Assembly (NCBI GenBank): GCA_038046805.1
Contig: JBBSVO010000006.1
Location: forward strand, 215,166 to 279,165
Direction of reading: 5' to 3'
DNA from: Candidatus Micrarchaeota archaeon
Lineage (GTDB): Archaea; Micrarchaeota; Micrarchaeia; Anstonellales; Bilamarchaeaceae
DNA: 64,000 nucleotides
Both the position numbers and the translations under genes were made by a program. Below are positions 41,211 through 64,000 of this stretch, one piece after another (the first letter of the stretch is position 1; every line of letters begins with the position of its first letter). Below the pieces are notes generated by a model, which searched no databases, was not told the origin of the DNA, and saw nothing but the letters and a program-made list of their open reading frames with translations.

Positions 41211-41224
41211 ATGGTGGCTAAAAA

Positions 41225-43213: not shown

Positions 43214-43244
43214 TTTTATAAAACTCCAATACAAAGGTGTTTCA

Positions 43245-44120: not shown

Positions 44121-44125
44121 GTGAA

Positions 44126-45187: not shown

Positions 45188-45255
45188 ATATACAAAACCA
45201 ACCAAGTAATTCCGAGTGTTGACTTTGGAATTTCAGAGAGGGTTTTGTATAGATT

Positions 45256-45313
45256 GACCGACAAATCGGCGCACCGATTTGTGGTCCAGTGAACGGTTCG
45301 CCGTTCACTTGGA
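45256..45313 (+). mobile_element. Double-hairpin micro-element copy 4
   Basis: GA-CCGA-CAAATCGG cgca CCGATTTG-TGGTCCA-GTGAACGG ttcg CCGTTCAC-TTG-GA. Confidence 0.8.
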
Positions 45314-45374
45314 GACGAGAAAACATTCTTGTCTCAGGATAAAATACAAAATAACTATTATGGGGTGAAAAAAT

Positions 45375-45926: not shown

Positions 45927-46050
45927 TTCGGAAATTCTTTCTTTTTTCTTATTTTTTCTATTTTTTGATTTTTTACGGTTTCTTTATTATTTTGCTTTCT
46001 TTGTCTGTTTCAGGATGGGCTATTTAAATATTGTGGTATATACTATATTT

Positions 46051-47115: not shown

Positions 47116-48369
47116 ACCCTTTTTATTTCCACACGCCAATTCCTCTATCGCTCTTGCCGCCCTTTCCCCTGATCCTCCGTCAATTGAGAGAAGCTGCTCG
47201 CTTAGGAATCCCTCACGGTTCTTTTCCATATTCTTTAGAAGCGTCGTGTCGCCAAGAAGCCTTCTTATTACTCCTTTGATTTCCTCTTTTTTTCTCATTT
47301 CCAGCGCAACTCCTTTGCTGACGTATTCCTCAGGATATGGGATACACGGGTATGGTCTTCCTGTAAGATTCACTATTCCGACAGGTCGTCCCATTATTAT
47401 TGCGTCAAGCGCAACACTGGAAATGTCTGTTAGAACTGCTCCAGAAACATCTATTAGGTCATAAATATTCGTGTCTTTGGTTACAATTACCCGGGTACGC
47501 TGCTCCGTCGTTAGATATTTGTCATAATCTGATTGAATTTCACGCGGATGGATTTTAATGATGAGTTGAACCTTCTCGTTATCATCCTTCATTTCGCAGA
47601 CTTCTGAAACCACGCTCTTTACAAAGTATTCCATGTCCTCATAAGTCCAGAGCCTTGCGCCTGCCAGATCTGATGTTGCAAGAAGGACAATTTTTTTGTT
47701 TTGCGGAATTCCGAACGTCTTTCGTATATCGCTTTTGGGTTTATATCCTCCGGAAAATTTATCGTAATCAGGGTTTCCAACAACAACTACTCGGGATGGT
47801 TCAGTGCCTTTATCCACAAGCATCTTTTTCGTGAATTCCCCAAACACTGCAATCCTTGTGCAGTTTCCGATTCCATAGCGCGCACGCGGCTTCACATTAT
47901 CATTTTGGATTTTGTTTTTGTTTCCAATCGCACGCAATTTATCTCCCAACCGTTTCAGCAGGTATTGCGGCTTGTAGAGCGAGAATGCCCTTAAAAGATG
48001 CCTGAATGTGAATTTTGTTGTTGCAGTGATTACATGGTATGCCCCGTCCTGAAGAGTTATGCTTGGAATCCCAAGTTCGTTTGCAGCATCAACAAACATT
48101 GCAGGGGTTACTTCAGTATAATTTCCAATGACAACAACAGAGGGCTTTTTGCGTTTTATAATATCACGTGCAGAGTCTATGTTGAGCTCTTCCAGTCTTT
48201 CATACGGGATTCCCGCGGCATCCAACGCTTCTTCTATTCCCTCTTGTTTGAACTTGGCTATGCTCACGACTTCTAATCTTTTGCGCAAATGCTTGGCAAC
48301 CGGAAGAAATTTTCTTATCTGGATGTCATTTCCGGGAATATAAAGGATACAACGATTGTTTTCTGTCAT
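47110..48369 (-). CDS. GT-B fold surface-carbohydrate protein (CDP-glycerol glycerophosphotransferase / UDP-GlcNAc 2-epimerase-like)
   Basis: VVGNP.YD, IKIHPRE, SSV.LDA...G.P, DGGSGERAA. Confidence 0.75.
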   Translation of the reverse strand: MTENNRCILYIPGNDIQIRKFLPVAKHLRKRLEVVSIAKFKQEGIEEALDAAGIPYERLEELNIDSARDIIKRKKPSVVVIGNYTEVTPAMFVDAANELGIPSITLQDGAYHVITATTKFTFRHLLRAFSLYKPQYLLKRLGDKLRAIGNKNKIQNDNVKPRARYGIGNCTRIAVFGEFTKKMLVDKGTEPSRVVVVGNPDYDKFSGGYKPKSDIRKTFGIPQNKKIVLLATSDLAGARLWTYEDMEYFVKSVVSEVCEMKDDNEKVQLIIKIHPREIQSDYDKYLTTEQRTRVIVTKDTNIYDLIDVSGAVLTDISSVALDAIIMGRPVGIVNLTGRPYPCIPYPEEYVSKGVALEMRKKEEIKGVIRRLLGDTTLLKNMEKNREGFLSEQLLSIDGGSGERAARAIEELACGNKKGL

Positions 48370-48394
48370 TTTGGTTCCACCCATGTTTCCTATT

Positions 48395-49180
48395 CTATTT
48401 TTTCCTAACAAGGCGAGACGAGTACTGCTGACTTAAGTCTGCAGGTAAATTTTTTGTAACTACCATACCGGAAGCAGTACCAGAGCCCGACACATCGGGT
48501 CGTCTCACCTTGTTACCCCACATTATTACCGGGTCTCCGAACCCTGTTTTTACAAAAAGGCATTTCTTGGATAAAGAGAACGGGATTGGAATGCGTTGGA
48601 CTGTTTCGACATGAAGTTCTTTCCATTCACCAGCCTTTTTCAGAATTCCTTCCCACTCTTTTGCAGAATGCGCATTTCTATATGCTGTTTTTGCCCTCAA
48701 CATCTTGAAAAAGAATGGGCGTTCAGAACTCGGTCCTGAACAAATAAATGTTCCGCCATCCTTCAGCGCGTTGTAGCAATTCCTCACCACGGCTTCCGGG
48801 TTTTCAATAAGTCCGAGCGTTCCAAGGCACGTGACCAAATCAAATTTTTCATTTACAGGAATCGGAAACGGCTTTGTTGCATCGTGAATGTAAAGATAAG
48901 CCTCGTCAATGTTTTTTCTAGCTTCTGTTATCGCATACGCTGAGACATCAAGACCATAAAGTTTTTCATATCCGTGCTCGCGGAATAATTCAAGCATATA
49001 TCCGTACGAGCATCCGACATCAAGAACCGCGCGGTAGGAACCATCTCCTCCTCTCCACCGGATTCCTAGAAAATCAAAAAGATCTCTGTGATATACTTTC
49101 ACATACTCCTGTATTCTTCGATAAGCCTCTCTTCCTTCCTCTGTTTTGAAATAAGCATCCTTACTGAAATCAAAAGACAT
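48395..49180 (-). CDS. Class I SAM-dependent methyltransferase
   Basis: VLDVGCSYG, GLDVS, FDLV, LKDGG. Confidence 0.85.
   Translation of the reverse strand: MSFDFSKDAYFKTEEGREAYRRIQEYVKVYHRDLFDFLGIRWRGGDGSYRAVLDVGCSYGYMLELFREHGYEKLYGLDVSAYAITEARKNIDEAYLYIHDATKPFPIPVNEKFDLVTCLGTLGLIENPEAVVRNCYNALKDGGTFICSGPSSERPFFFKMLRAKTAYRNAHSAKEWEGILKKAGEWKELHVETVQRIPIPFSLSKKCLFVKTGFGDPVIMWGNKVRRPDVSGSGTASGMVVTKNLPADLSQQYSSRLVRKK
48406..48515. repeat. Structured element with 16-bp terminal inverted repeats within the methyltransferase 3' end
   Basis: taacaaggcgagacga ... tcgtctcaccttgtta (15/16); internal gtactgct/agcagtac and cccga-caca-tcggg stems. Confidence 0.65.
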
Positions 49181-49234
49181 GTAATTTACCTCATTGCCTT
49201 GAGCCCATTGCTCATAGTTCAGGGCCTATGGCTT

Positions 49235-49924
49235 TTATTCTCTTGTTTTAATCACTTGTGCCGGAACTCCAACCGCAATAGAATTCGGCGGAATATCCTT
49301 TGTAACAACGCTATGCGCACCAATTACTGCGCCATTTCCTATAGTTACTCCCTTTAGAACCGACACCCCTCTTGCAAGCCATACGTTGTTTCCGATTTTA
49401 ACTGGTTTTGTGCGAATGCGTTCTTCATTCATATTCTCGCTTGCGTTTGTGTCATGGTCTGTGTCTATTATCATTACAAATCCCGAAATAAGGCAGTTGT
49501 CTCCTATATCTATTTTGTCAAACGCGTTAATGTTTGCAAGCTGTCCGAAATAGCAGTTTTTTCCGATTTTAAGCGTGCCGTTATAGGCTGTATTGAGCCG
49601 CACCATTTTCTCAAGATGCGTTCCGCCTCCGATTTCTATTTTTCCATTGTCCCGTGCCCAGATTTCACAATTGCCATCCAAACCAACCTCGTCGCCTAGC
49701 GCAATCTCGCCTTTATTATACGCGCGGAAGCTGTTCCACCCGCTCAGGCGGACGTTTCGCCCGATCTGTTTGCATTTTCGCATGATATTTAGTCTATTTA
49801 TGATAAGGAAAGGATTAAGCGCATCTACAAGGCGGTCCAGCACTATCTCTATTGTTTGCCAGAATCCGTATTTTGAAAGAAATCCAGATAGTTTATTGGA
49901 GACATGCCCTGGTTCGTAAACCAT
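49235..49924 (-). CDS. Hexapeptide-repeat acyltransferase
   Basis: IGDNCLI, PVKIGNNVWL, GVTIGNGAVIGAHSVVTKDIP...AVGVPA. Confidence 0.9.
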   Translation of the reverse strand: MVYEPGHVSNKLSGFLSKYGFWQTIEIVLDRLVDALNPFLIINRLNIMRKCKQIGRNVRLSGWNSFRAYNKGEIALGDEVGLDGNCEIWARDNGKIEIGGGTHLEKMVRLNTAYNGTLKIGKNCYFGQLANINAFDKIDIGDNCLISGFVMIIDTDHDTNASENMNEERIRTKPVKIGNNVWLARGVSVLKGVTIGNGAVIGAHSVVTKDIPPNSIAVGVPAQVIKTRE

Positions 49925-50005
49925 GCTAATATCTCATCTCCATGTATTTTAATTCTTACAGGTGTATAATCCACGTAATCTTTTATCGGTTTTTGGGTGT
50001 TTTCT

Positions 50006-52330
50006 ATGACTAAATCTAACTCTGGGGTTGAATTGTGGAAGCGTGCAAAGCAGATTATTCCGGGCGGCTCTCAATTGCTTTCAAAGCGTTCGGAAATGTT
50101 CCTTCCTGACCAGTGGCCTTCTTATTATTCTAAAGCAAAGGGGATTAACGTCTGGGATCTTGATGGAAACAAGTTTACGGACATGTGCATAATGGGCATC
50201 GGTGCGTGTATTCTTGGTTATGCTGATGATGATGTAAATCGCGCGGTAAAGGACAGGATTGACCGCGGCAACATGACAACGTTCAATTGCCCGGAAGAGG
50301 TTGAGCTTGCAGAAAAGCTGATTTCACTTAATCCCTGGGCAGGCGGAGTGCGCTATGCAAGAACTGGCGGGGAATCAATGTCAATGGCTGTTCGCATTTC
50401 GCGCGGGTATGCGAAAAAGGACAAAATCGCATTTTGTTACGATGATAAAACAGAGATTTTGACAAAAGACGGATTCAAAAAATTCGAGGATGTATGTGAA
50501 GAGGAATTAGTCGCAACACTTAATCCCCTTACAAATAAGCTGGAGTATCATAAAATAGACCGAAAAATAAAGCTTCAGTTTACAGGTAAAATGATACATT
50601 TTAAGGGCCAAAGAGTCGATATCTTAGTAACTCCTGACCATATGGTCTATCGAAAGTTTCGGTTAAAAAAGGGGCATCATTTTAAACTCATACGTGCTTC
50701 GAATGCTTTACAAAGAAAAGTAATGACTCAAATGACGAGTTTTTGTAATTGGGATGGAGAATCTAAAAACGAGAAATTCATTATTTCTGGGATTGAGAAT
50801 CAATCAAGACCGACAAAAGGATTAATGTCTTTTCCTATAAAGTATTTTGTTAGATTTATGGGTTGGTACTTATCTGAAGGTTGTTGTGTAAAACGAAAAA
50901 AACGTAAAACTTACGAAGTAGTTATAAGCCAGGATATAAAAAACAAAGAAAAAAGTGATGAGATATTTACAACAATCAGAAGTTTGGGATTTAAACCGTA
51001 TAGAAATGGACACCATATTTGTTTTAATTCCAAAGAACTCACACACTATTTGCAACAATTTGGGCATACTAAAGACAAATACATCCCAGCCTGGATAAAA
51101 AACCTGCCGCCTAGTTACTTGGCAATTTTTGTAGATGCTATCGTAAAAGGAGATGGCACATTTGAAAACGGCAGAATCAGAAAATTTTATTCTACTTCAA
51201 AGAAATTGATAGACGGGATGCAAGAAATTCTGTTAAAAATGGGTCATTCATCCACAGTTTCCGAAATTCATGGCAATGGTTTTTCAAAAGGTATGATATA
51301 CCACCTAAATATAGGGAGGGAGAAAATTTTGGGGTCTTGGCCAAAAGAAGAGCACTATGATGGCTTTGTATATTGTGTTACCGTTCCAAATCATATCATA
51401 TTGGTGCGAAGAAATGGAAGAATCGTGTGGTCTGGAAATTGCGGATATCACGGATGGTCTGACTGGTATCTTGCGACTAATCTAAAAGACCCTGGCGGAT
51501 TGAATGACCATCTTTTGAAAGGCCTTGAGCCTCTTGGAGTTCCGCAAAACCTCAGTGGTTCTGTACTGCCATTTCATTATAACAAAATAGAAGAACTCGA
51601 AGCATTAGTCTCCAAAAACAAGGATATCGGCGTAATCGTGGTTGAGGCAATAAGAAGCCAGAAGCCTGAGAACGACTTTTTGGGCAAGGTGCGAAAGATC
51701 GCGGATGAAATCGGGGCGGTCCTCGTATTTGATGAAATTACTTCTGCCTGGAGAATGACTATTGGTGGAGCGTATCCAATGTTTGGGGTAACGCCGGATG
51801 TCGTTGTATTCGGAAAGGCAATGAGCAATGGTTATCCGATGGCAGCGGTTGTTGGAAAGGCCGAAGTGATGGACGTTGCCCAACAGAGTTTTATCAGTAG
51901 CACTTACTGGTCTGAGGGTGTTGGGCCAACTGCGGCTCTTGCAACAATAAAAAAACTCGAGGATAAGGCTGTGCCAAAACATATTGTTGAAATTGGAAAC
52001 TACGCAGGTCATACCTGGGAGCGCCTTGGAAAAGAATCGGGCCTGAAGATTCATGTTGATTTCGGGTTCCCTCCGATAATGCATTTTGATTTTGAATATG
52101 AAAACAAACTCGCAATAATGACTTTGTTCACGCAGGAAATGTTGGCCAGAGGATATTTGGCCACGGGCGGCTTCTATGTTTCTTATTCCCATCAGAAATC
52201 AGACGTGGATAAATATGGGGAGGCCTGCGCCGAGGTATTCAAGCTGATAAAAAAAGCAGTTGATGATGGGAGTGTTGAAAAGCAGTTAAAAGGTCCGATT
52301 AAGCATTCTGGGTTCCAGAGATTGACTTAG
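50006..52330 (+). CDS. Class III aminotransferase (glutamate-1-semialdehyde aminomutase-like), intein-containing
   Basis: IPGGSQLLSKR, WDLDGN, GYHGW, FDEITS, FGKAMSNGYP (PLP lysine). Confidence 0.9.
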   Translation: MTKSNSGVELWKRAKQIIPGGSQLLSKRSEMFLPDQWPSYYSKAKGINVWDLDGNKFTDMCIMGIGACILGYADDDVNRAVKDRIDRGNMTTFNCPEEVELAEKLISLNPWAGGVRYARTGGESMSMAVRISRGYAKKDKIAFCYDDKTEILTKDGFKKFEDVCEEELVATLNPLTNKLEYHKIDRKIKLQFTGKMIHFKGQRVDILVTPDHMVYRKFRLKKGHHFKLIRASNALQRKVMTQMTSFCNWDGESKNEKFIISGIENQSRPTKGLMSFPIKYFVRFMGWYLSEGCCVKRKKRKTYEVVISQDIKNKEKSDEIFTTIRSLGFKPYRNGHHICFNSKELTHYLQQFGHTKDKYIPAWIKNLPPSYLAIFVDAIVKGDGTFENGRIRKFYSTSKKLIDGMQEILLKMGHSSTVSEIHGNGFSKGMIYHLNIGREKILGSWPKEEHYDGFVYCVTVPNHIILVRRNGRIVWSGNCGYHGWSDWYLATNLKDPGGLNDHLLKGLEPLGVPQNLSGSVLPFHYNKIEELEALVSKNKDIGVIVVEAIRSQKPENDFLGKVRKIADEIGAVLVFDEITSAWRMTIGGAYPMFGVTPDVVVFGKAMSNGYPMAAVVGKAEVMDVAQQSFISSTYWSEGVGPTAALATIKKLEDKAVPKHIVEIGNYAGHTWERLGKESGLKIHVDFGFPPIMHFDFEYENKLAIMTLFTQEMLARGYLATGGFYVSYSHQKSDVDKYGEACAEVFKLIKKAVDDGSVEKQLKGPIKHSGFQRLT
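50435..51439 (+). mobile_element. Intein (335 aa) with LAGLIDADG homing endonuclease
   Basis: Starts CYDDKTEILTKDG; block B VTPDH; EN blocks FMGWYLSEG and FVDAIVKGDG; ends VYCVTVPNH...VWSGN followed by Cys+1. Confidence 0.95.
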
Positions 52331-52372
52331 GGGGCTCAGGCAAATATTTGAGGAATGTTACCGAGTTCTTGA

Positions 52373-52386
52373 AGATGCAGGGGAAG
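52373..52386 (-). repeat. tRNA 3'-end-like direct repeat copy A (att-like)
   Basis: agatgcaggggaag = reverse complement CTTCCCCTGCATCT. Confidence 0.6.
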
Positions 52387-52508
52387 GATACTCAGAACTG
52401 ATCTGAGGCGATTTAGCACTCGGATGTAAAATTTGGCAGGAATTGTAATATATGCAAAATTGCCCACAAATAATATAAGATTTATCTAGAACGATACCCT
52501 GGCCTGAA

Positions 52509-53762
52509 CTAGTTTTTTAACAACCAGTCAATCAACGGAACAAACCGGATGCTGATCCCATTAATTTCTTGGGTTTTGGAGACGTTCTTCGTCAAAATTA
52601 TCGCAGTTTTCATCTTGAATTCTTTTGCACATTTGACAATCGCGTCTGTTTCTCTGGCCATTGTTTTTTCATCTTCCAGATCATATACGACCTGAATTAT
52701 CTGTTCTATGTGTGTTCCTTGTTTTATCAAGAAATCCACTTCCCGGCCTTCTGTATTTTTCCAATAGCATACGTCGTTATGTTCTCTTCTTTTTAGCTCC
52801 AGGAAGGTTAGATTTTCGAATAGTCTTCCCAAGTCCATTTTGCCAGTGGTGCTATGGGCAAAGCCAGTATCTCCGCAGTAAGCCTTTCTTGAGTACTGGG
52901 ATTTGTCTTTTATGTTGTAAGCAAATATCTGAACGAAGAAGAACAGATAGCTTGCCTGGGAGTAATGTTCGAATTGAAGTATTTTTTCTTTCCCGACTTT
53001 GTGCCCGATTGTTTTGAGGAAGTTCAGGCATTTGGAAGCGGAAAAGTACGGACTTTGTATCACATACCTTCCGAAAGTTTCAACGACCCCTGCATCTTCA
53101 TTCGAAACCTCGGCGACATCGAGACCGACAATGTCCTTGAAGTAGGAGTTCAAAATACGCACTTTGTCTATTTCCTCGTTTGTTAATGCAATTTCTGGAA
53201 ATCCACCATATTTGAGATATTCAAAAAATGCCTTCTCAAGCCTACCCTTTCCGGCGGTTGTTTTTTCTACTTCTAGTTTTTTGAACTGTAAGAACTCATG
53301 AAAAGAGAGCGGGTAAAGCTCGTATGGTAAGATTCTGCCTCTGAGAGGCTTGCTTGGCCAGACAAGATTCTTGCGTGACGAACTTACAATAAGCCGCAAT
53401 TTTCCCTTGAGCAGTTCATGAGTTCGTGCCAACCAGCCTTCCCAATCCTTCGAACTAGTTACTTCGTCCAGTAGCATGAAACCACCGTCTCCAAACCACT
53501 TTATTGTTTCATCTAGAACGTGTGTGTTATCCTTTATGCGACTGTCCTCTAAATTGATATAACAGACTTTTTCGCCTTGTGCAACAAGCTTTTGTGCCAA
53601 TAGCATAAGAACGCTTGATTTTCCAGCTCTCCGTATCCCCGTAATGGCAATTATTTTCGACTTGGAGTTGGCGATTATGGAATCAAAATCCACTTCTCTC
53701 TCAAGCAGTTTTTTTTTCTTGACGTAAACATTCCATTCTTCGAATACTTCGTTGGTTTCCAT
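52509..53762 (-). CDS. AAA+ ATPase (AAA_14 + DUF4143 type)
   Basis: GIRRAGKS, LDEV, L.GR.....YPLSF.EF, YL.YGGFPE, K.Y..DTG, LFEN, EVDF. Confidence 0.9.
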   Translation of the reverse strand: METNEVFEEWNVYVKKKKLLEREVDFDSIIANSKSKIIAITGIRRAGKSSVLMLLAQKLVAQGEKVCYINLEDSRIKDNTHVLDETIKWFGDGGFMLLDEVTSSKDWEGWLARTHELLKGKLRLIVSSSRKNLVWPSKPLRGRILPYELYPLSFHEFLQFKKLEVEKTTAGKGRLEKAFFEYLKYGGFPEIALTNEEIDKVRILNSYFKDIVGLDVAEVSNEDAGVVETFGRYVIQSPYFSASKCLNFLKTIGHKVGKEKILQFEHYSQASYLFFFVQIFAYNIKDKSQYSRKAYCGDTGFAHSTTGKMDLGRLFENLTFLELKRREHNDVCYWKNTEGREVDFLIKQGTHIEQIIQVVYDLEDEKTMARETDAIVKCAKEFKMKTAIILTKNVSKTQEINGISIRFVPLIDWLLKN

Positions 53763-53764
53763 GT

Positions 53765-53815
53765 ATTGTTCTAGTGTAGAACAATATATAAACTTTTCTG
53801 TTCTGCAGCAGAACA
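53765..53815. promoter_or_regulatory. Two palindromic operators flanking a TATA box
   Basis: ATTGTTCTA-gtg-TAGAACAAT (53765-53785), TATATAAA, TGTTCTGC-A-GCAGAACA (53799-53815). Confidence 0.6.
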
Positions 53816-53957
53816 ATAATCTGATTGTAGATATAGGTATTACGCTAGAGTAACATGATTAAATATTGCATTCCGAATGACGATTTTGTCATGTAGTTAG
53901 TTTATATGACAAGAGAACTACAACCAAAATTGGTTAGTGCACTCAGGTAGGAACGAT

Positions 53958-53974
53958 ATGCAGGGGAAGTAACC
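53958..53974 (-). repeat. tRNA 3'-end-like direct repeat copy B
   Basis: atgcaggggaagtaacc identical to copies C and D. Confidence 0.75.
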
Positions 53975-54112
53975 ACCTGCCAGGACTCAGTTCCCTACGA
54001 CGTAAAAATGTCGATTACAGCACGATTTTGTCGGTATCGGCAACCAACAGGTTGCTGATAGATTGAAACCGAAGCATCGGTTTCAGGATATCTACAAACG
54101 CCAAGTTCTGGC

Positions 54113-54170
54113 TCCGATTGTTCGACGCATCGAACAATGGACCATAAATCGCATTGGCGATTTATCGGTC
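54113..54170 (-). mobile_element. Double-hairpin micro-element copy 5
   Basis: Reverse complement GA-CCGA-TAAATCGC caat GCGATTTA-TGGTCCA-TTGTTCGA tgcg TCGAACAA-TCG-GA. Confidence 0.8.
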
Positions 54171-54389
54171 GTAAGCGTGAGGGGTGTTCTAAGAGGAGAA
54201 TTTTAAAAAGATTGCTATCAGTTGTTAAGAATTCTCTGAATTGATATTATTAACTATTGTTAATTATTGTTAACTTTATGATAGTTAAAGTAAGGCTAAC
54301 TGCCTCGTATATTAGGTTTTACCGAAAGATTTAAATATCTTTAAGTATTATTAACTATTATTAAGTTAATAATGTTTAAGGTGTTAAGC

Positions 54390-55715
54390 ATGCCAGAAAT
54401 TGAAAATCAAAATCTAGAATTGAAAAGAGAAGTAGAAAACTTCAAAGAGATAAGTAAAACTGCTTGTGCATTTGCTAATGCATTCGGAGGAAAGATAATA
54501 ATCGGAATTGATAATTCAGGAATTGTTTTCGGAGTTCCAGAAAAGAATCTTGATAACCTTCAACAAAGAATTGAGGGTGCAATACAACAAACTTCTCCAG
54601 CCCCATTACATAAAATTTCAATTGAGGAACGCGAAGGCAAAAAGATAGTTGTGGCAGAGATTTATCGAATAGGGCAAGGTGCATTCTGTACATTTGGAGG
54701 AATTGTTTATTACCGGTCAGGAAGTATGAATAGTAAGCTAGAGGGCAGAACACTTCAGGATTTTTTGGTCCGTTCTAGAATCCTTTCGTTCGATGATTCT
54801 CTCTCAGATGCCAAACTAGAAGACATGGATGCCACAAAGGTTTCTAATTTTCTCAAAAAACGCTCTCCGAATGTCGCATTTGAAGAAGGCAAACTTGCAG
54901 ATTATCTAATCAATCTGGGTGTAGCCCAGAAAAGCGCAGAACTTGCCATAAAAAACGTGGCGATTCTGTTTTTTGCCAAAGAACCGAAGAGATTTTTACC
55001 TCAAAACGAAATGAAACTGGTGCGTTTCAAAGGATCTGAAGCGATAGAAATCATAGACAGCCGTTTTGTAAATTCCACAGTTTTGGAAAACCTTAAGGAA
55101 GCGGAAGAATTCATAAAAAAGAATACGAGTGTCGCATTTAGGATTGAAGGCCTTGCTAGGAAAGAGGTTCCAGAATATCCTGAGAGTGCAATGCGTGAAG
55201 CTTTGGTTAATTCAGTTTTGCACAGAGACTATTTCAGTAAGGATAGCATCCAAATAAATATCTTTGATAATAGAATCGAATTCATAAATCCCGGAACCTT
55301 GCCTAGTGGTTTGACTATGCAGATTTTAGGAAGTTTATCAGTTCAGAGAAACCCAACTATATATCAATTAATGCGAGAACTTGGTTTTGTTGAGGGATTG
55401 GCAACAGGAATACCGAGAATGCGCTCTGAGATGAGGGTTGCAGGATTGCCAGAACCCAAATTCGAAGAGCTTGGAAACTTTTTCAGAGTGATATTATATA
55501 ATAAAACCATTGCTGAGGAAAGAGAACTTAACGAAAGGCAGAAAAGAGCATTAGATTATTTAGAAAGAAACCCTTCGATAAGCTCGAAAAAATACATTGA
55601 ACTAGGCCACATTTCACATCCAATTGCAGTTGCAGAGCTTAATCGCCTTTGCTTAAAAGGATTAGTGAAAAGAATTGGAAGGACAAGAGGCGCATATTAT
55701 GTTAAGGGGGGTTAG
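54390..55715 (+). CDS. AlbA_2 (Schlafen-like) + HATPase_c_4 (RecG C-terminal-like) + HTH protein
   Basis: ENQNLELKR, CAFANA.GG.IIIGI.N.G, YP..A.REALVN...HRDY, NPG, RNP.I, TGIPRM. Confidence 0.85.
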   Translation: MPEIENQNLELKREVENFKEISKTACAFANAFGGKIIIGIDNSGIVFGVPEKNLDNLQQRIEGAIQQTSPAPLHKISIEEREGKKIVVAEIYRIGQGAFCTFGGIVYYRSGSMNSKLEGRTLQDFLVRSRILSFDDSLSDAKLEDMDATKVSNFLKKRSPNVAFEEGKLADYLINLGVAQKSAELAIKNVAILFFAKEPKRFLPQNEMKLVRFKGSEAIEIIDSRFVNSTVLENLKEAEEFIKKNTSVAFRIEGLARKEVPEYPESAMREALVNSVLHRDYFSKDSIQINIFDNRIEFINPGTLPSGLTMQILGSLSVQRNPTIYQLMRELGFVEGLATGIPRMRSEMRVAGLPEPKFEELGNFFRVILYNKTIAEERELNERQKRALDYLERNPSISSKKYIELGHISHPIAVAELNRLCLKGLVKRIGRTRGAYYVKGG

Positions 55716-55731
55716 GCGATTGATTGAGACC

Positions 55732-55971
55732 CTACCTAAAAGGGGTTTTGCAATTGGGGCATTTATCAGAATTGATAAGACCAAAAGAACTATTGCAGTT
55801 GCTACAATGAACATTTGCAGAAACTGTTTGTCCTTGTGGATTTGGTTCCATTGTAGTTCCGCAAGTTGGACATTTTGGATCTCCTTCGGGAGCAGAACTT
55901 ATTGATGCTCCGATATCTACTGTTGACTTACATTTAGGACAAATAAAACCAAAATACGAAGTTCCTTTCAT
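55732..55971 (-). CDS. Small multi-zinc-ribbon protein
   Basis: CPKC, CPTC, CSNC, CPNC. Confidence 0.65.
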   Translation of the reverse strand: MKGTSYFGFICPKCKSTVDIGASISSAPEGDPKCPTCGTTMEPNPQGQTVSANVHCSNCNSSFGLINSDKCPNCKTPFR

Positions 55972-56495
55972 TTTTCATCACCTTTTTTATAAGAGATTCT
56001 AGTTCCAGTTACGTTGCCTTTCCCTTCTGCAATGACTTTAGTTCCTGGCTTGAAAAAAACTGGTTCTTGAACATCCAGTCCGATAATATTACCCGTACCT
56101 GATGCCCTATGTTCACCGTCTATGGTAGACACCCTAGAATTTACTGATCTATTTAAGTTTGACTTAACCCACGTTTCATGGTCAGTTTTCCATCTTTTCA
56201 AAACATCAACCGAATAGTCTATACCACTATTCTTGTCGATCATATCAGCACAATGGGAGCAGAGAAAAATTCCGTTTTCTGAAGATGATCTTTGTTCACT
56301 AGTAAGAGAAAAATTAAATCTTGGGCCATTAGACGCAGCAGCAGTTATGTGTGCTGCTTTGCCAGTGTAAATAAATTTTGATAAATCGGCAGCTGAGGGA
56401 GCAAGGGTCATAGCGCGACAATCCGGGTTAGAACATATATACTGGGCGCGTTTAGCTATGCTCTCCGTTGTTTTGGGTGAAAAATCATCTCGCAT
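55968..56495 (-). CDS. HNH-like nuclease domain protein
   Basis: CSNPDC...AAHI.AAS.NGPR....N.I.LC.HC...ID. Confidence 0.7.
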   Translation of the reverse strand: MRDDFSPKTTESIAKRAQYICSNPDCRAMTLAPSAADLSKFIYTGKAAHITAAASNGPRFNFSLTSEQRSSSENGIFLCSHCADMIDKNSGIDYSVDVLKRWKTDHETWVKSNLNRSVNSRVSTIDGEHRASGTGNIIGLDVQEPVFFKPGTKVIAEGKGNVTGTRISYKKGDEK

Positions 56496-56497
56496 GT

Positions 56498-56785
56498 TTA
56501 ATTCCTCCGAACCATTATTGTTCCGCACTTATTGCATTTATGTTTAGGTTCGCCACCCATGGAAACTTCCAAACCTATGAATAATGTCGAACCACATTTT
56601 GGACATTTATATTCTGGCTGGAGTCGGTATGCTTCGGGTTTTACATTTCTTGGTCCTACTGTAATTTCGAAATACCGTACCATGTTTTTTATCGCTTCTT
56701 GCTTTGTTTTAAAATTGTTAACTATTTTGTAGACTTCTAATATTTTGGATTCTTCTTCGGATAATTCAAGCAACATTTTAGCCAT
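56498..56785 (-). CDS. DUF2683-like ribbon-helix-helix protein with C-terminal Zn ribbon
   Basis: L.LSEE..+IL.VYK......K.EAI; CPKC...CNKC. Confidence 0.55.
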   Translation of the reverse strand: MAKMLLELSEEESKILEVYKIVNNFKTKQEAIKNMVRYFEITVGPRNVKPEAYRLQPEYKCPKCGSTLFIGLEVSMGGEPKHKCNKCGTIMVRRN

Positions 56786-56960
56786 ATAATCACAAGTTAT
56801 ATTAAGTAATACTAGATTATAAAGCTATCGGGCTCTCCGTCCATTAAATATCTTAGAAAAGTTGGCGTCCTCAAATTAGACCTGAGGACTTCCAGAGTGC
56901 ACTCAGGTTAATTTCGACTTATGCTCACGTCGAAGAAAAGTAGGGATTCTAAGAAAAGTG

Positions 56961-56994
56961 AGATGCAGGGGAAGTAACCCGAGACTAGGTCTCC
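56961..56994 (-). repeat. tRNA 3'-end-like direct repeat copy C (34 bp)
   Basis: agatgcaggggaagtaacccgagactaggtctcc; 33/34 identical to 63874-63907. Confidence 0.85.
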
Positions 56995-57245
56995 GTTCAT
57001 CGACAAGAGCGGAAGCTCTTGGAGAGATTTGAACGGAACGCCGTTCAAACAGATCACCCATTTTTTACCTCGTTACCAAGTATTATTATCGAGGTCAAAA
57101 TATATAAAGGCTGCTCTAGCTGAAATGGCAGAATTCCTAAGAATTAGGGTGGATTGATAGGGAAAAACAATGAAACGATCTAGGGGCCAACAGCACGTAT
57201 AGCCCTACCCACTCGCCCCATTATTGAGAGTACCAAGTCACAACA

Positions 57246-57926
57246 TTACTTTTTGGTTTTGTTATTCTCCTTTTTGTGACATAATTCAAACAAAGTCTGA
57301 TAAGCCTTCATTAAATCTTTTTCTTCTACGAATACTAGCATCTCTGGAACACAGCTCATTATCTCGTAAATATTAACACTATTTAGCATAAGTTCGGTTG
57401 ATATTACCAACACAATGCCAGGCGTATTTACTGCTTCAGGATGCAGATGTATATTTACCTCTGCAAGATCTTCTTGTATTTTTATTATAATTCTTTTAGG
57501 TAAGAGATCCAGCACCTTCTTGAGATTTTTTTCATCCACAAGCACTTTGATTGATTCCTCTCCTTCCACGATACGTAGCGTTTCACCACGTTCGAAATTT
57601 ATAAGGGAAAACAACCGTGGCAATGTTTCCTGTGCTTCTTTTCCTGTTTCCAATGCAATACTGACAATGTGACTTCGGGTAGAGATAGTAGACTGGCTGA
57701 CAATCTTTCCAGCGTTTTCGAATTTATTTTTAAAAGTACTGTCTTTGGGATAGCGGCGTATCGCACTTATTACAGCATCTTCAGTTGGTTCCAAACCTTT
57801 TTCTTCCAGTTGTTTTGCAACAAATCTGCTAAGTGCCCGAATGTTTATCAGGTCGCGTTGCAGGCAGAGCTGGATACTTGGATCTTTCTCTATTATTTTC
57901 CATGTTTCAAACGGTATTTCTGTCAT
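57246..57926 (-). CDS. ACT-domain-containing putative regulator
   Basis: I...L...LIN..AL.R....AVI.AIRRY N-terminal domain; TPGI.........N.VNI.EI.SC..E ACT-like C-terminus; divergent from leu operon. Confidence 0.7.
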   Translation of the reverse strand: MTEIPFETWKIIEKDPSIQLCLQRDLINIRALSRFVAKQLEEKGLEPTEDAVISAIRRYPKDSTFKNKFENAGKIVSQSTISTRSHIVSIALETGKEAQETLPRLFSLINFERGETLRIVEGEESIKVLVDEKNLKKVLDLLPKRIIIKIQEDLAEVNIHLHPEAVNTPGIVLVISTELMLNSVNIYEIMSCVPEMLVFVEEKDLMKAYQTLFELCHKKENNKTKK

Positions 57927-58038
57927 AATTAGCATATTTGTGTTAAAACAATTAATAAATGTATCTTTTGTGCCATAAAATATTAATAGGATGGCTGTTA
58001 CATGAATCAACATCAAAACACAAAATGAGGTGGGAAAT

Positions 58039-58143
58039 ATGAGAATAAGTGTAAGAGAAGGAAATAATGAAAAAATAGGCATTCGGGATAAAGCAGCTAA
58101 ATTGATCTTGAATGAATTGGCCTTGGACCAGGCCTATTGCTAA
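58039..58143 (+). CDS. Putative leader peptide of the leu operon (34 aa)
   Basis: GAGGTG RBS; MRISVREGNNEKIGIRDKAAKLILNELALDQAYC; four TTG Leu codons in 8 codons; T7 tract right after the stop. Confidence 0.5.
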   Translation: MRISVREGNNEKIGIRDKAAKLILNELALDQAYC

Positions 58144-58225
58144 TTTTTTTAATAATAACAAAGTTGCGATAGGCGGAATGAAACATTATGATCAATAGAA
58201 TTGATGGATAAGGGGTGAAAAAACA

Positions 58226-59098
58226 ATGACAAAAGTAAACATGAGTGGGGAAATAGTTGATGAGGCAGATGCTAAAATATCAGTATTCGACCATGGATTA
58301 CTCTATGGCGACGGAATATTCGAAGGAATACGGATATACAATCGGTGCATTTTCAAATACAGCGAGCATATCGATAGGCTCTATGATTCTGCCCGCGCAA
58401 TTTCACTTACGATTCCTATCAGCAAACAAACCTTCCAGGATGAAATAATCAAAACATGTATTGAAAATAAAATAGATAGCGGCTATCTTCGTGTCATAGT
58501 AACTCGTGGGATAGGTGGACTTGGGGTAAGTTCAATTACATGCAAGAATCCACAGTATATTATAATCTCTAAGGAAGTAGATCCGCTTCATGGAGCCAAA
58601 TCAGTTGAAGATGGCGTGGATGTGATAACCACATCAATACGACGAGCAAGTAGTACAGCAATTCCTGTTCAAGCTAAAACCTTAAATTACCTCAATCTAG
58701 TGATGGCCGTTGCCCAAGCGCAGGCTTTAGGAAAACAAGACGCATTAATGTTCAATGAACAGGGATATCTGACCGAGGGAGTAGGAGATAATGTTTTCAT
58801 AATAAAAAACAGAGTAATATGTACCCCACCCCCCAACTCAGGTTGCCTTGCTGGTATTACCAGAAATTCAGTTATTGAAATCGCCAGTAAAATGGGTTAT
58901 AGTGTAGTAGAGATAAATATGACTCTTTACGATATTTACGTTGCAGACGAAATATTCCTTACCGGTACACTTGCAGAGATCGTTCCGGTCAAGAGCGTAG
59001 ATGGCGAAAAAATAGGCAACGGGCAGGTAGGAGATCTAACCAAAAAAATTGCCAGCGAATTTAGAAAGTACATTGTAAACAACGGGGTGAAATACTGA
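58226..59098 (+). CDS. ilvE: Branched-chain amino acid aminotransferase
   Basis: DHGLLYGDGIFEGIR, K.LNY, EG.G.N.F, L.GITR, ADEIFLTGT.AEI.PV. Confidence 0.95.
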   Translation: MTKVNMSGEIVDEADAKISVFDHGLLYGDGIFEGIRIYNRCIFKYSEHIDRLYDSARAISLTIPISKQTFQDEIIKTCIENKIDSGYLRVIVTRGIGGLGVSSITCKNPQYIIISKEVDPLHGAKSVEDGVDVITTSIRRASSTAIPVQAKTLNYLNLVMAVAQAQALGKQDALMFNEQGYLTEGVGDNVFIIKNRVICTPPPNSGCLAGITRNSVIEIASKMGYSVVEINMTLYDIYVADEIFLTGTLAEIVPVKSVDGEKIGNGQVGDLTKKIASEFRKYIVNNGVKY

Positions 59099-60651
59099 TG
59101 GGTACTTTTGTTAGTTATTATAATTTTGATGCAGAAACGCGGCAATCCATGGATCTTCCTAAAAAAGTCAGTGTTTTTGACACCACGCTAAGGGATGGGG
59201 AGCAGACTCCAGGAGTGGTTTTTACAGGAAAGGAAAAATGCCACATTGCAACTGAACTAAGCAAGCTTGGTGTAGATATTATTGAGGCGGGGTTTCCGGC
59301 AAATTCGGAGGAGGAGCAAAAAAATATCCAAGAGATTACAGGGCTTGGCCTAAAGAGCAAAATATGCACTCTTGCAAGGGCAGTTGAAAGTGATATTGAG
59401 GGTTGTATTAAATGCAATCCCAATATGGTACATACTTTCATATCTACGTCGGATATTCATATAAAATATCAGATGAATACAACTAGAGAAGCAGTAATGA
59501 AACGCGCAATAGACTCTGTGGATAAAATCAAGAATCAGGGTTTTGAATGTATGTTCTCTCCAATGGATGCAACCAGGACTGATTTTGATTTTCTGGTAAA
59601 AGTATGTAAAGAAGTTGAAAATGCCGGTGCTGACATAATAAATATCCCGGATACTGTCGGCGTCATGAATCCACCTGCAATGCGCTCGTTGTTTAAGAGG
59701 CTGAAGAATCACTTAAAAATACCACTCGATGTACACTGCCATAATGATTTCGGCCTTGCAGTGCCAAATACCCTTGCTGCTGTAGAATCTGGGGCCTCGG
59801 AAGTTCAGGTTACAGTTAACGGGCTTGGGGAACGCGCAGGCAATGCAAATCTTGCTCAGGTAGTAATGAGTCTTAATATTTTATACGGGGTTAACACAAA
59901 TATCAAAACCCAGGGACTTACCGAGATTTCAAAATTAGTTGAAAGGCTGTCTATGATCCATAATCCTGCAAACACCCCTCTTGTTGGTAAAAATGCATTC
60001 AGTCACGAATCAGGAATACACGCCGCAGCCATACTCAAGAGAGCAGAAACTTTCGAACCTATTTCTGCAGAGATGGTGGGTCAACGAAGTAGAGTGGTTA
60101 TTGGAAAAAACACAGGACGGCATGCAGTTTCAGATGCGCTTAAATCGATAGGATACAAATTCAATGAGGATCAGATAAACACAGTTACACAAAAAATCAA
60201 GGAACTTGCAATAAAACAGAAAAAAATATCTGAAGATGACATAATTGCGATTGCAGACGAGGTACTGTGCAATGAACCAAACACGGAAAAGGCAATTGTG
60301 CTTGAAGATTTTTCAGTATTTACGAGCAACAAGATGGATTCTATGGCGAGCGTTGTGCTTTCTGTGTGCGGCGAAAGAAAAAAAGGCAATGCTATTGGAA
60401 TAGGTGCCGTTGATGCGTCTTATAAGGCAATAAGTTCAGCGCTGGGGATACCGTTCAAGCTAAGCGAATATAACCTGAAAGCGATTACTGGCGGAACTGA
60501 TGCACTGGCCAATGTGCTAATCCGGATTGAAGGTAACAAAAAAGAAATTCAAGCCGAATCTGTCCACGAGGATATTGCATTAGCCTCAGTCAATGCACTT
60601 ATTAAAGGAATGAATAAAATGAAAATAAATGAACTGGGGCAAGCGAAATGA
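59098..60651 (+). CDS. leuA: 2-isopropylmalate synthase (LeuA/CimA family)
   Basis: DTTLRDGEQTPG, HCHNDFGLA, NGLGERAGN, HESGIH; C-terminal regulatory domain; operon context. Confidence 0.85.
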   Translation: MGTFVSYYNFDAETRQSMDLPKKVSVFDTTLRDGEQTPGVVFTGKEKCHIATELSKLGVDIIEAGFPANSEEEQKNIQEITGLGLKSKICTLARAVESDIEGCIKCNPNMVHTFISTSDIHIKYQMNTTREAVMKRAIDSVDKIKNQGFECMFSPMDATRTDFDFLVKVCKEVENAGADIINIPDTVGVMNPPAMRSLFKRLKNHLKIPLDVHCHNDFGLAVPNTLAAVESGASEVQVTVNGLGERAGNANLAQVVMSLNILYGVNTNIKTQGLTEISKLVERLSMIHNPANTPLVGKNAFSHESGIHAAAILKRAETFEPISAEMVGQRSRVVIGKNTGRHAVSDALKSIGYKFNEDQINTVTQKIKELAIKQKKISEDDIIAIADEVLCNEPNTEKAIVLEDFSVFTSNKMDSMASVVLSVCGERKKGNAIGIGAVDASYKAISSALGIPFKLSEYNLKAITGGTDALANVLIRIEGNKKEIQAESVHEDIALASVNALIKGMNKMKINELGQAK

Positions 60652-61739
60652 TCCGTATTGCAGTTCTGCCTGGAGATGGAATAGGACCTGAGATCACAGC
60701 TGAAGCAATAAAAATACTAGAGGCAGTAGCTGAAAAACATAACAGTAAATTCGAATTTGAGTATGCTGATTTTGGGGGAGCTGCGTATGATAATCACGGG
60801 CATCCGTTCCCAGAACAAACAATTCAAATTTGCGACAAAGCAGATACAATTTTGAAAGGTCCTGTTGGTGCACCAAAATATGACAATATCGCTGACCCTA
60901 GCTTAAGGCCTGAACGAGGTGGAGTGCTTGCACTTAGAAAAAGATATGATACTTTTGCGAATTTCAGACCAGTTTATCTTCCGCCATCTTTAATTTCATT
61001 TTCTCCCCTGAAAAAAGAAAACATCAAAAGTGGAATTGACATTCTCATGATAAGGGAGCTTGTAGGTGGGATATATTTTGGGGATAAAATGGAGGGTAAA
61101 AACGAATCTGGAAAATATGCCCAGGATGTGATGGAATACACTGAATTCCAGGTTGAAAGAATTGTCAGAATCGCATTTGAAGAGGCAAGGAAAAGAAAAG
61201 CCCTGCTTTACAATATTCATAAATCAAATGTTCTCCAGTGCAGTGTTTTCTGGAACAGAATAGTTAATGAAATACAAGAAAAAGAATATTCTGATGTGAA
61301 AATGGAACATATGCTTGTGGATAATGCTGCATACCAGCTTGTGGTTAACCCCTGTCAGTTCAAAGTTATGCTTATGGAGAATATGATGGGAGATATACTT
61401 ACAGACGAAGGAGGAGGAATAATCGGATCGCTTGGGCTCATGCCCTCAGGATGTATTGGACCAAAAAAAGCATATTTTGAACCTGCGCATGGTTCAGCAC
61501 CATCAATAGCTGGAAAAAATATTGCAAACCCGTATTCTATGATCGGAAGTGCTGCCATGATGCTGGAAAGATTTGGAATGGGAAAAGAAGCAAATGAGAT
61601 ATGGAACGCTCTGACAAAAGTAATGGAGAAAAATAGAACTTGGGATCTCATGACAAAAGAAAATCCAGATGGCGCAGTTCTCGTTACTACGAAAAAATTC
61701 GGCAATCTTGTAAAAGATAAAATTCTTTCGTGTGGTTAA
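60648..61739 (+). CDS. leuB: 3-isopropylmalate dehydrogenase
   Basis: [48 protein letters not shown]. Confidence 0.95.
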
Positions 61740-61740
61740 T

Positions 61741-63141
61741 ATGTCAGAAAATACTCTGCTAGATAAAATCTGGAAGTTGCACACTGTAAAAGAACTCCCT
61801 ACCGGGCAGACCCAGCTTTTTATTGGGCTTCATTTTCTTCACGAAGTTACGAGTCCTCAGGCATTTGATATGCTACGGGAAAATAACTGGAAGGTGGCAT
61901 TTCCAGAACAGAATTTTGCAACTGTAGACCACATAGTCCCTACAGATAACCAAAATCGCCCTTTCAAAGACATTCTTGCCGAAAAAATGATGGCTGCACT
62001 GGAGAACAATGTTCGGGAATTTGGCATTCAGATGTTTTCAATTGGGGACAAAAACCAGGGTATTGTACATGTTATCGGCCCTGAAACCGGACTTACCCAA
62101 CCAGGCATGACTATTGCCTGCGGAGATAGTCACACTAGTACGCATGGTGCGTTCGGTTCTCTTGCATTCGGAATAGGCACTAGCCAGGTACGTGATGTGC
62201 TTGTTACACAATGTCTTGCAATGACAAAACCAAAAGTCAGAAAGATTAATATCAAAGGCACTCTTCAGAAGGGAGTTTATGCAAAAGACATAATACTCAC
62301 AATAATTAGAAAACTAGGGGTTAATGGGGGTATAGGATACGCATATGAATACGCTGGAGAAACAGTATCGAGAATGACAATGGAAGAACGGATGACAATA
62401 TGTAATATGAGTATCGAAGGCGGGGCGGTAATAGGCTATGTAAATCCTGATCAGAAAACTTTTGACTACATAAAAGAAAGAGAGTTCGCGCCAAAAAACT
62501 TTGAAAAAGCAGGCATATATTGGAAATCAGTCGCCTCAGATCAAAATGCACAATATGACGATGTTTTCCAACTTGATGTAACTAAACTTGAACCAGTAGT
62601 AACATGGGGGGTAAACCCAGGACAATCAATAGGTATAAGCGAGAAGATGCCGTTAATCAGGGGCATACCAGAAAACGAAAAAGAAAGTGCAAAACTTGCG
62701 TATAAGCACATGGGATGTAATCCGGAGCAAAAAATTCAGGGGACAAAGATAGATGTTGTATTCATTGGTTCTTGTACAAATGCACGGCTTTCTGATCTTA
62801 GAGAAGCAGCTGGGATTGTAAAAGGAAAAAAAATAGCATCTAATGTAAAAGGACTTGTTGTTCCTGGATCAGCAAGAGTTAAAAAAATGGCCGAGGCAGA
62901 TGGTCTTGATAAAATATTTACTGATGCTGGTTTTGAATGGCGAAACGCAGGATGCTCGCTTTGCCTTGGGATGAACAGTGATAAACTGACTGGCGGTGAA
63001 ATATGTGCATCATCATCCAATAGGAATTTCATAGGAAGGCAGGGGAGTCCAAAAGGAAGGACTATATTAATGAGTCCTGCCATGGTCGCTGCTGCAGCAA
63101 TAGCGGGGAAAATAATAGATGTACGAAAACTGATAGTGTGA
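61741..63141 (+). CDS. leuC: 3-isopropylmalate dehydratase large subunit
   Basis: [46 protein letters not shown]. Confidence 0.96.
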
Positions 63142-63146
63142 TCAAA

Positions 63147-63749
63147 ATGAATATAACAATAGAACGAATAGACGGAAGGGGCATCCCGCTTCGAGGCAAT
63201 GATATAGATACGGATAGGATTATTCCGGCAAGATACCTCAAGGAAATCACATTCACTAACATGGGAAGTTATCTTTTTTACGATGAACGATTCGATGAGA
63301 TGGGTCAGAAAAAAGAGCATATCCTCAACGTTTCAAGGTTTTTTGGTGGTTCTATTCTCTTAGTAAACAAAAATTTTGGCTGTGGTTCTTCGCGTGAGCA
63401 TGCAGCGCATTCCATCCAGAAATTTGGTATTCGTGCTATCATCGGGGAATCGTTCTCCAATATCTTTGCTTCCAATTGCCTATCTCTTGGCATCCCGGTT
63501 GTTCAGGTTTCATCAGAAGACTCAGAATTCCTGATGACGACAATTGAACGGCACCCACAAACAGTAATCGTTATCTCTATCTCAAAAGGAGAGATAACAT
63601 GTAGTAAAAAAATAATTAAATTCACAATGCCTGAACATGCAATAACGGCGTTACTGGCAGGAAACTGGAATTCGACCCAACTGCTTCTTTCTAACATGTT
63701 TGAAGTACGAACTATGGCTGTAGGGTTACCCTATATAAAGGGGTTTTAA
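63147..63749 (+). CDS. leuD: 3-isopropylmalate dehydratase small subunit
   Basis: DIDTDRIIPARYL, NFGCGSSREHA. Confidence 0.95.
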   Translation: MNITIERIDGRGIPLRGNDIDTDRIIPARYLKEITFTNMGSYLFYDERFDEMGQKKEHILNVSRFFGGSILLVNKNFGCGSSREHAAHSIQKFGIRAIIGESFSNIFASNCLSLGIPVVQVSSEDSEFLMTTIERHPQTVIVISISKGEITCSKKIIKFTMPEHAITALLAGNWNSTQLLLSNMFEVRTMAVGLPYIKGF

Positions 63750-63873
63750 TGAAACAAATAAAAAATGTGTGAAGTCAGGGATCAGATACCTGGCCACCGT
63801 TCTCCCAGACTGCATTTCACATGTCCTGAAAAAAACTCTACGACGTAAAATTAATCAAAAAACTAGCAAAAAA

Positions 63874-63907
63874 AGATGCAGGGGAAGTAACCCGAGACCA
63901 GGTCTCC
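63874..63907 (-). repeat. tRNA 3'-end-like direct repeat copy D (34 bp)
   Basis: agatgcaggggaagtaacccgagaccaggtctcc. Confidence 0.85.
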
Positions 63908-63945
63908 AAACACCCCAAACGGAGTGATCGGATACCAAGTAGGAT

Positions 63946-64000
63946 TGCAGGGGAAGAGATTTAAACCCATGAAGGAATATTCCAATAACTAGTGTTCTGT
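63946..64000 (-). pseudogene. Degenerate tRNA 3' half (probably Leu), copy E; may continue beyond the window
   Basis: Reverse complement ...GGAATATTCC-TTC-ATGGG-TTTAAAT-CTCTT-CCCCTGC-A: variable-arm hairpin, imperfect T arm and acceptor strand like the tRNA-Leu at 5494. Confidence 0.55.

Follow-up and report, generated by a model that had tools for sequence, protein, structure and literature searches.

The right-hand end of a 64,000-nt stretch of DNA from a tiny Candidatus Micrarchaeota archaeon living in groundwater (assembly GCA_038046805.1, contig JBBSVO010000006.1, here C6, positions 215,166 to 279,165; the whole stretch is referred to as the window) carries a tandem array of modules that are separated by short copies of a tRNA-Leu 3' end and lack an integrase. 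On balance, we consider it probable that the modules of this array are non-autonomous descendants, stacked in tandem, of small integrative elements that target tRNA-Leu 3' ends in this archaeal family, and that they are recombined at the short core sequence by an integrase of this element family acting in trans. As judged from the sequences, the autonomous relatives possess a tyrosine integrase of about 400 amino acids (aa) with a C-terminal double CxxC motif, located between a left and a right arm; the modules of the window keep the arms and are without integrase. The host genome is archaeal, 1.2 Mb in size and 86% complete, and its intron-rich tRNAs agree with the assignment to Micrarchaeota. 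It is designated G000, other G-numbers stand for comparison genomes and L-numbers for mapped loci.

The 11-mer TGCAGGGGAAG occurs in exactly five copies in the window, all on the plus strand, at 52376 (A), 53959 (B), 56964 (C), 63877 (D) and 63946 (E). This confirms the five repeats in the same orientation described in a first-pass annotation of this DNA, the start positions of which were 0-3 nt off. By chance, 1.18 ± 1.12 copies with at most one mismatch are expected, and five copies were reached in none of 100 shuffles. On the minus strand, the core corresponds to the 3' terminus of the genome's own tRNA-Leu(CAG), the gene of which ends in the 11-mer, so that the proposed origin from a tRNA-Leu end was correct as well. 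The match of copies C and D at 33/34 positions and the recurrence of accessory motifs at 53936/56896 and at 53995/63838 were also reproduced. The cores delimit four intervals of 1572, 2994, 6902 and 58 bp, and the GC content of the three long modules is 0.38-0.40 versus 0.426 in positions 1-44,000 of the window. No integrase or integrase remnant was found in the window, as the genome's own tRNA-Leu integrase had no tblastn match there at E ≤ 1, in agreement with the earlier statement that no module encodes one.

Copies A-D differ in kind from copy E, as only A-D combine the core with a palindromic arm, a 17-bp imperfect palindrome that lies 4 nt before the core, starts with C(T/G)(C/G)AG and is weak in B. 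A site matrix was built from 25 arm-plus-core sequences, with A and C of the window in the training set; a search of the genome with this matrix returned A-D and three other sites, and none in two shuffles. The bare 11-mer is too short for a cross-genome search and has many matches within coding DNA. The arm-plus-core pattern occurred in 32 of 401 genomes of the phylum (23/75 in the own family) versus three control matches, some of the matches being without palindrome and probably due to chance. Where matches were mapped, tRNA-Leu genes were followed by one to three such modules, and the module boundaries coincide with the same cores, as had been anticipated. Among 38 modules from 23 genomes, a sample biased by the choice of loci by site pattern, five contained an intact integrase (a tyrosine integrase of ~400 aa), one a remnant and 31 cargo only, and one was empty. 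Both arms are common to an integrase-bearing and an integrase-less module located at two tRNA-Leu genes of G258, and integrase remnants adjoin arms in G012 and G292. Comparison of autonomous elements and modules showed that the terminal 11 nt of the tRNA are duplicated upon each insertion. Because the arms are homologous to those of integrase-bearing elements, the ends of the window modules can be traced to autonomous integrative elements; a stretch of arm A is identical at 24/27 positions (aligned by eye) to the integrase-proximal arm upstream of the G015 integrase. A-D are thus predicted attachment sites, homologous to the ends of the relatives' integrase-carrying elements at tRNA-Leu. One B-type arm pattern had no match in viral contigs, and a metagenome scan yielded a single locus (L145), a match to the sister species that does not reach beyond the window. 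The parts of the array are listed below.

52376-52386, minus strand: core A, the tRNA-Leu 3' 11-mer at the distal array end, 45 nt beyond an aminotransferase stop codon.
52387-52440, minus strand: right arm of module B-A (site score 45.8), palindrome of 17 bp at 52391-52407.
52509-53816, minus strand: AAA_14 and DUF4143 ATPase (domain matches), the only cargo of module B-A (52387-53958, 1572 bp, GC 0.396).
53929-53958, minus strand: left arm of module B-A, 20/30 to the arm behind the own tRNA-Leu(CAG).
53959-53969, minus strand: core B (site score 31.0).
53970-54210, minus strand: right end of module C-B, common to the first module behind tRNA-Leu(GAG) on contig C11.
54112-54169, no strand: 58-nt multi-copy hairpin insert, a passenger in the right end of C-B with other copies across the genome.
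54372-55715, plus strand: AlbA_2 (Schlafen-like) and HATPase_c_4 protein (domain matches), cargo of C-B (53970-56963, 2994 bp, GC 0.379).
55732-56785, minus strand: three small open reading frames (ORFs) of C-B, encoding a 79-aa double Zn ribbon, a 186-aa HNH-like protein (by eye) and a 95-aa Zn-ribbon protein.
56869-56963, minus strand: left arm of module C-B, matching arms in G002 and G183.
56964-56974, minus strand: core C (site score 42.2).
56975-57166, minus strand: right end of the leucine module, palindrome at 56979-56995, arm type also in G001, G183 and G004.
57246-58082, minus strand: ACT-domain protein (domain match), divergent from the leu operon, a presumed regulator.
58226-63749, plus strand: ilvE-leuA-leuB-leuC-leuD operon, each gene at or over an NCBIfam cut-off, cargo of module D-C (the leucine module; 56975-63876, 6902 bp, GC 0.398).
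63809-63876, minus strand: left arm of the leucine module, matching the arm behind tRNA-Leu(GAG) in G001.
63877-63887, minus strand: core D (site score 38.0).
63888-63945, minus strand: empty 58-bp module D-E, left arm and right arm only, similar to a short unit in G012.
63946-63975, minus strand: copy E, a ~30-nt decayed intron-less tRNA-Leu 3' fragment with damaged T-loop and T-stem.

The cargo named in the first-pass annotation was recovered for the ATPase, AlbA_2, Zn-ribbon, ACT and ilvE-leuABCD genes; its HNH-like and RHH proteins had no family match. The 186-aa ORF matched nothing in Pfam or NCBIfam, its label resting on motifs read by eye, and the 95-aa ORF, formerly assigned to RHH, gave only Zn-ribbon matches below cut-off.

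Comparison of the module ends strongly indicates a mosaic, in which ends have been swapped between cargos. The right end of C-B matches that of a module on C11 with unrelated cargo over 241 bp at 95.9% (258 bp at 95% including the core), its contig depth is doubled (42.7 over 53970-54210), and 195 bp match at 93% in another genus (G002). Its left arm (95 bp) has counterparts with other cargo in G002, where the arm immediately following a tRNA-Leu is 84% identical, and in G183 (77%). Similarly, the first 30 nt of the leucine module's left arm are identical (30/30) to the arm that immediately follows tRNA-Leu(GAG) in G001, and 79 bp including the core match at 87%, the cargo there being another; the right-arm type of the leucine module occurs in G001, G183 and G004, each time with other cargo. 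Between genera, the arms of the window are 77-93% identical, the cargo homologues only 63-78%.

These ends also bear on the main rival reading, possible but rather unlikely, according to which the array would be a relic: each module would have lost its own integrase or that of a neighbour in cis, the sites would be inert or function in cis only, and strain differences would arise by homologous recombination. Such a route of decay is described for cis-mobilizable elements (CIMEs; PMC5704250) and has been suggested for 15 ssrA islands of Dehalococcoides that lack an integration module (PMC3146451). Integrase remnants and deletion-like derivatives in relatives, the decayed state of E and of the core in G001, the lack of an excision joint and the off-core left break of the population variant described below are all consistent with it. 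However, no module of the window holds an integrase remnant, cores A-D are all perfect and have kept their arms, the non-coding arms are better conserved between genera than the cargo, and two arrays of the same genome with different cargo share one end at 96% identity. The first-pass annotation had offered decayed tandem islands as its own alternative. The ends do descend, as far as can be judged, from integrase-carrying islands, and this is compatible with an action in trans; we infer that the modules are probably still moved in this way.

The genome encodes three PF00589 proteins, situated beside elements at tRNA-Thr, tRNA-Gly and tRNA-Leu(TAA) (tRNA identities by eye). The integrase at tRNA-Leu(TAA), 402 aa in length (C6:167,198-168,406), is encoded on the same contig as the array at a distance of ~100 kb. 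It is an intact integrase of the tRNA-Leu type. The earlier expectation of a recombinase adjacent to the array was not supported within the contig, which ends at 64,000. The protein keeps the catalytic R, HxxR and Y motifs as well as two C-terminal CxxC motifs; it falls below every NCBIfam cut-off, and its nearest solved relatives are archaeal XerA-like enzymes (E 1e-15). Like the archaeal tRNA-targeting elements of the non-suicidal type, its element has an intact tyrosine integrase with the attachment site outside the gene. A relative with 79% identity over 160 aa, in G392, is located among cores identical to those of the window. In a tree of 23 rows, which had no pNOB8 or SNJ2 reference sequences, nine Leu-adjacent enzymes fell into three supported clades inside a 13-row group that includes Gly- and Glu-adjacent enzymes. 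Thus, with regard to the recombinase acting in trans postulated by the first-pass annotation, an intact tyrosine integrase is available in the genome, and it may act on the array from a distance.

Copy E was compared with tRNA-Leu ends in order to determine what the array is attached to. Its 30 nt match intron-less tRNA-Leu ends at 87-90%, at best 27/30 with the tRNA-Leu of a relative, and it has no palindromic arm. With 19 tRNAs, the score of E was reached by 0/300 shuffles and by 4/300 when the last 6 nt were fixed; a first test with only five tRNAs had given 3/500 and 32/500 and was redone with 19. Rfam returned three chance matches and no tRNA for 63,700-64,000, and ARAGORN detected no tRNA in the window, although this tool also misses most intron-rich tRNAs of this genome. 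A reading of E as the end of a T-loop intron in an otherwise intact tRNA was abandoned, given that its 30 upstream nt align with an intron-less tRNA. E is best interpreted as an old tRNA-Leu fragment that serves as the anchor of the array.

The tRNA-Leu genes were located by motif and read by eye. The CAG gene has three introns (C6:49,935-50,162), GAG is on C11, TAG on C2 and TAA at C6:164,578, and the CAA gene, which ARAGORN missed, starts on the minus strand at window position 5,895 and is interrupted by three introns, in the D-loop, at the anticodon and, a long one, in the T-loop. None of the five isoacceptor genes adjoins the array. In G001, a genome of the same genus, the aminotransferase ortholog is followed by one degenerate core and then by an spsF-like gene (name by eye), and contig C13 of the own genome starts inside the spsF-like gene that comes after the aminotransferase in G001. 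Based on this synteny and the start of C13, the array most likely interrupts a glycan gene cluster, away from a working tRNA, with the stretch beyond 64,000 unread. A relaxed site scan of 40,000-52,380 gave no further site and no sign of a glycan-gene module left of A. No contig end of the own genome overlaps the end of C6, which coincides with the window end 44 nt beyond core E; one contig of run X5 extends 141 letters further, and these letters are unread.

The proximity of the contig end, together with a genome that is only 86% complete, leaves room for an ordinary tRNA-anchored island, with a further tRNA-Leu and perhaps an integrase element in the right-hand gap; E would then be either the distal end of an older island or the terminus of that tRNA-Leu gene. 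In length and form, E agrees with the long duplications of tRNA ends in G415, and most arrays mapped in relatives begin at tRNA-Leu. We nevertheless regard such an arrangement as improbable, as all five isoacceptor genes are located elsewhere, the T-loop of E is damaged and E is without the T-loop intron of the own tRNA-Leu(CAG), and C13 starts inside the gene that comes after the aminotransferase in G001. Likewise, the intact tRNA-Leu that the first-pass annotation had placed to the right of the window found no support, the exclusion being partial because of the unread gap beyond 64,000.

Two neighbouring genes were noted in this region. The class-III aminotransferase gene (49997-52330, plus strand) is split by ~1 kb with a LAGLIDADG domain, presumably an intein, and this stretch is absent from the G001 orthologue. 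A 401-aa ORF without Pfam match (45910-47115, plus strand) lies between a pilin-like gene and the glycan cluster.

Contig depths point to variation of the array within a population. In run X2, the contig over 56,775-63,905 had a depth of 13.7 versus 21.3-21.6 in the flanks; a 7.3x path departs close to 56,811 and returns at a core, and a C-type arm is joined to other DNA on a 2-kb contig at 7.5x. Roughly one third of the run X2 population thus appears to differ at the leucine module. Low or absent coverage in runs X11 and X13 was given no weight. Short hairpin inserts lie inside the module ends at 54112-54169 and 57001-57061, each of which is skipped by a minor allele of run X2 (2.1x for 54112-54169).

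Several observations weigh against recombination in trans by an integrase of the family. The cores of the presumed helper integrase differ from those of the window in the presumed overlap, matches to the enzyme at E ≤ 1e-20 occurred in only 13/41 genomes, and G001 and G006 have arrays without a match (all of these being drafts); moreover, the Leu-adjacent integrases do not form one supported clade. The two arms of a module have little symmetry to each other. Of the 12 loci at which the AAA or AlbA cargo has a homologue, only one has a core within the fetched flank, several being cut by contig ends, and the leu genes of seven other genomes are without a scoring site, one of them having a bare core. 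The whole leucine module was found in none of 400 other genomes, and the other two cargo modules were never seen whole elsewhere, only as gene pieces, among 98 genomes. The variant allele was seen in the contigs of one of four runs (X2, possibly the source sample), and its left break (56811) is situated ~150 bp inside an arm, with unknown letters between, and does not represent a clean excision. Finally, the excised or circular junctions at the repeats that had been suggested as a check were not listed in any of the four runs, for which contigs were used that drop rare forms.

If the family integrase does act in trans, it would be expected from the biology of tyrosine recombinases to recognise the palindromes of the arms in double-stranded DNA and to carry out strand exchange within the CTTCCCC stretch common to the sites; any two cores could then excise the DNA between them, and a circle could enter any core. 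New modules would have entered at the E end, growth of the stack thus taking place at a distance from all working tRNAs (with the gap beyond 64,000 unread). The enzyme would be supplied most simply from the tRNA-Leu(TAA) element ~100 kb away, or from visiting elements. Arms and cargo may have been reassorted through the loss of internal cores and recombination between near-identical ends, a route by which the leucine operon could have been captured. In its furthest form, which we put forward only tentatively and with some doubt, portable double-stranded attachment arms derived from a tRNA-Leu integrative element would bracket chromosomal operons that a distant helper integrase shuffles, that is, a working integron analogue in DPANN archaea, with free-standing arrays on a decayed tRNA fragment and the leucine pathway as an on/off cassette within one population.

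The ilvE-leuABCD operon is present as a single copy in the genome; leuC occurs in 5/99 genomes of the family and not in G001. In the standard pathway, ilvE and leuABCD would convert valine to leucine. As no ilvC or ilvD was found in the own genome (86% complete), the operon most likely serves to make leucine from scavenged valine. DPANN archaea have not been brought into culture, and their amino-acid pathways are patchy. Here, an operon that is rare in its family lies between defined recombination sites and appears to be absent from part of one population. Mobilisation in trans, if true, would provide a route for pathway turnover in these symbionts; if false, the array is a well-resolved case of ordinary island accretion in a little-studied lineage. 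Aromatic and tryptophan genes (by eye) follow the own tRNA-Leu(CAG) array (G000:C6:51398-66000) and may represent an older capture; aromatic genes also follow a core-bearing site in G001 (L045).

Further modules were encountered in the own genome and its relatives. A second apparently orphan module, with an AAA ATPase, a B-type arm and a core, is located at a contig start (G000:C9:1-1489), and the orthologous place in G001 is without core. A tRNA-Gly element (G000:C11:226-7970) likewise ends in palindrome plus core and contains an integrase together with a split gene resembling reverse transcriptases (by eye); a reverse transcriptase similar to that of this element occurs in a tRNA-Leu array of G006. 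An AbiEi/AbiEii-like pair (by eye) forms a module at G000:C11:19977-21857 and at L162:9885-11759, 76% identical across two genera, with the same left arm and a different right arm; both are second in an array at a tRNA-Leu behind rps4-rps11-rpoD-like genes. A nucleotidyltransferase-HEPN-like pair (by eye) is a recurrent cargo in arrays of five genomes (L043, L053, L062, L146 and L161). At L189 (G415:C67), two modules are closed by copies of the tRNA-Leu end of up to ~44 nt instead of arm and 11-mer, representing a second insertion specificity at the same tRNA.

The first-pass annotation had called the array integron-like. As in integrons and in clusters of attC sites lacking an integron integrase (CALINs; bioRxiv 10.1101/2022.02.06.479319), cargo units free of a recombinase are combined with a separate tyrosine recombinase, and to this extent the description holds as an analogy only. 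That the array is a true integron or CALIN is hardly tenable. Sites in the same orientation with short palindromes lie between cargo genes, and archaeal CALINs exist (bioRxiv 10.1101/2022.02.06.479319), but no attC R'/R'' consensus occurs within 300 bp of any of the five cores and fold z-scores of only -0.9 to -1.8 at A-D give no strong hairpin. The 402-aa integrase, the one of the genome's three tyrosine integrases that the scan covered, scores 51 bits against a TIGR02249 cut-off of 265 and does not classify as IntI; furthermore, the core is tRNA-derived, and the modules hold one to six genes on both strands. A casposon array at tRNA-Leu was rejected, as no Cas1 (PF01867) was found in the 86%-complete genome and no terminal inverted repeats were seen, with local scores of only 4-8 between the ends of each of the four modules.

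The autonomous relatives fit the archaeal tRNA-targeting elements with intact tyrosine integrase (cryptic integrated elements; PMC6563490, PMC8371274), which are defined by having an integrase, whereas the window modules have none; re-use of one site into arrays has been noted in archaea (PMC6563490). A review on archaeal recombinases (PMC8371274) contains no occurrence of 'Micrarchae', 'DPANN' or 'zinc', and full-text searches of a library in which most subscription journals are missing found no paper on this element family in Micrarchaeota, although island tables in supplements (e.g., TIGER/Islander) could list such elements. Tycheposons (bioRxiv 10.1101/2020.12.28.424599) share the tRNA-targeted metabolic cargo, the streamlined genome and subpopulations without the element; however, they are described as encoding their own integrases and their mobility has been shown by experiment, whereas that of the array is deduced from sequence.

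The closest counterparts are accretion islands. CIMEs, cis-mobilizable elements that undergo tandem accretion (PMC5704250), resemble the array in that genes for integration and transfer are missing, attachment sites are kept at both ends and the ends come from autonomous elements. Stacking at a tRNA 3' end is common to both, the anchor here being a decayed tRNA fragment. Unlike in CIMEs, no autonomous element adjoins the array within the contig, neither gene remnants nor a conjugation system were seen, and the array's ends are reassorted between cargos. The ssrA islands of Dehalococcoides (PMC3146451) are likewise tandem, with RNA-gene 3'-end repeats and a conserved motif beside the repeat, many (15) without integration module, with adaptive cargo and a host of small genome size. 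They employ a serine recombinase in a six-gene module, a tmRNA target and a 20-bp repeat, in contrast to the single tyrosine integrase, tRNA-Leu, 11-bp core and modules of 0.06-7 kb in the present case; a serine recombinase (PF00239) was not found in the own genome. In additive flexible genomic islands (fGI-2 of Methylophilaceae, PMC10872708), tRNA-end repeats similarly punctuate a stack of variable modules; in contrast to these, the present array can be assigned a cognate integrase family and conserved palindromic arms, and no intact tRNA adjoins it within the contig. Tandem accretion of integrase-less islands at the ends of RNA genes is therefore already known from CIMEs, ssrA islands and additive islands, and the present array is unusual in that it appears to be detached from a working tRNA, that its ends have been reassorted and that its cargo includes a leucine pathway which seems to be present in only part of a population.

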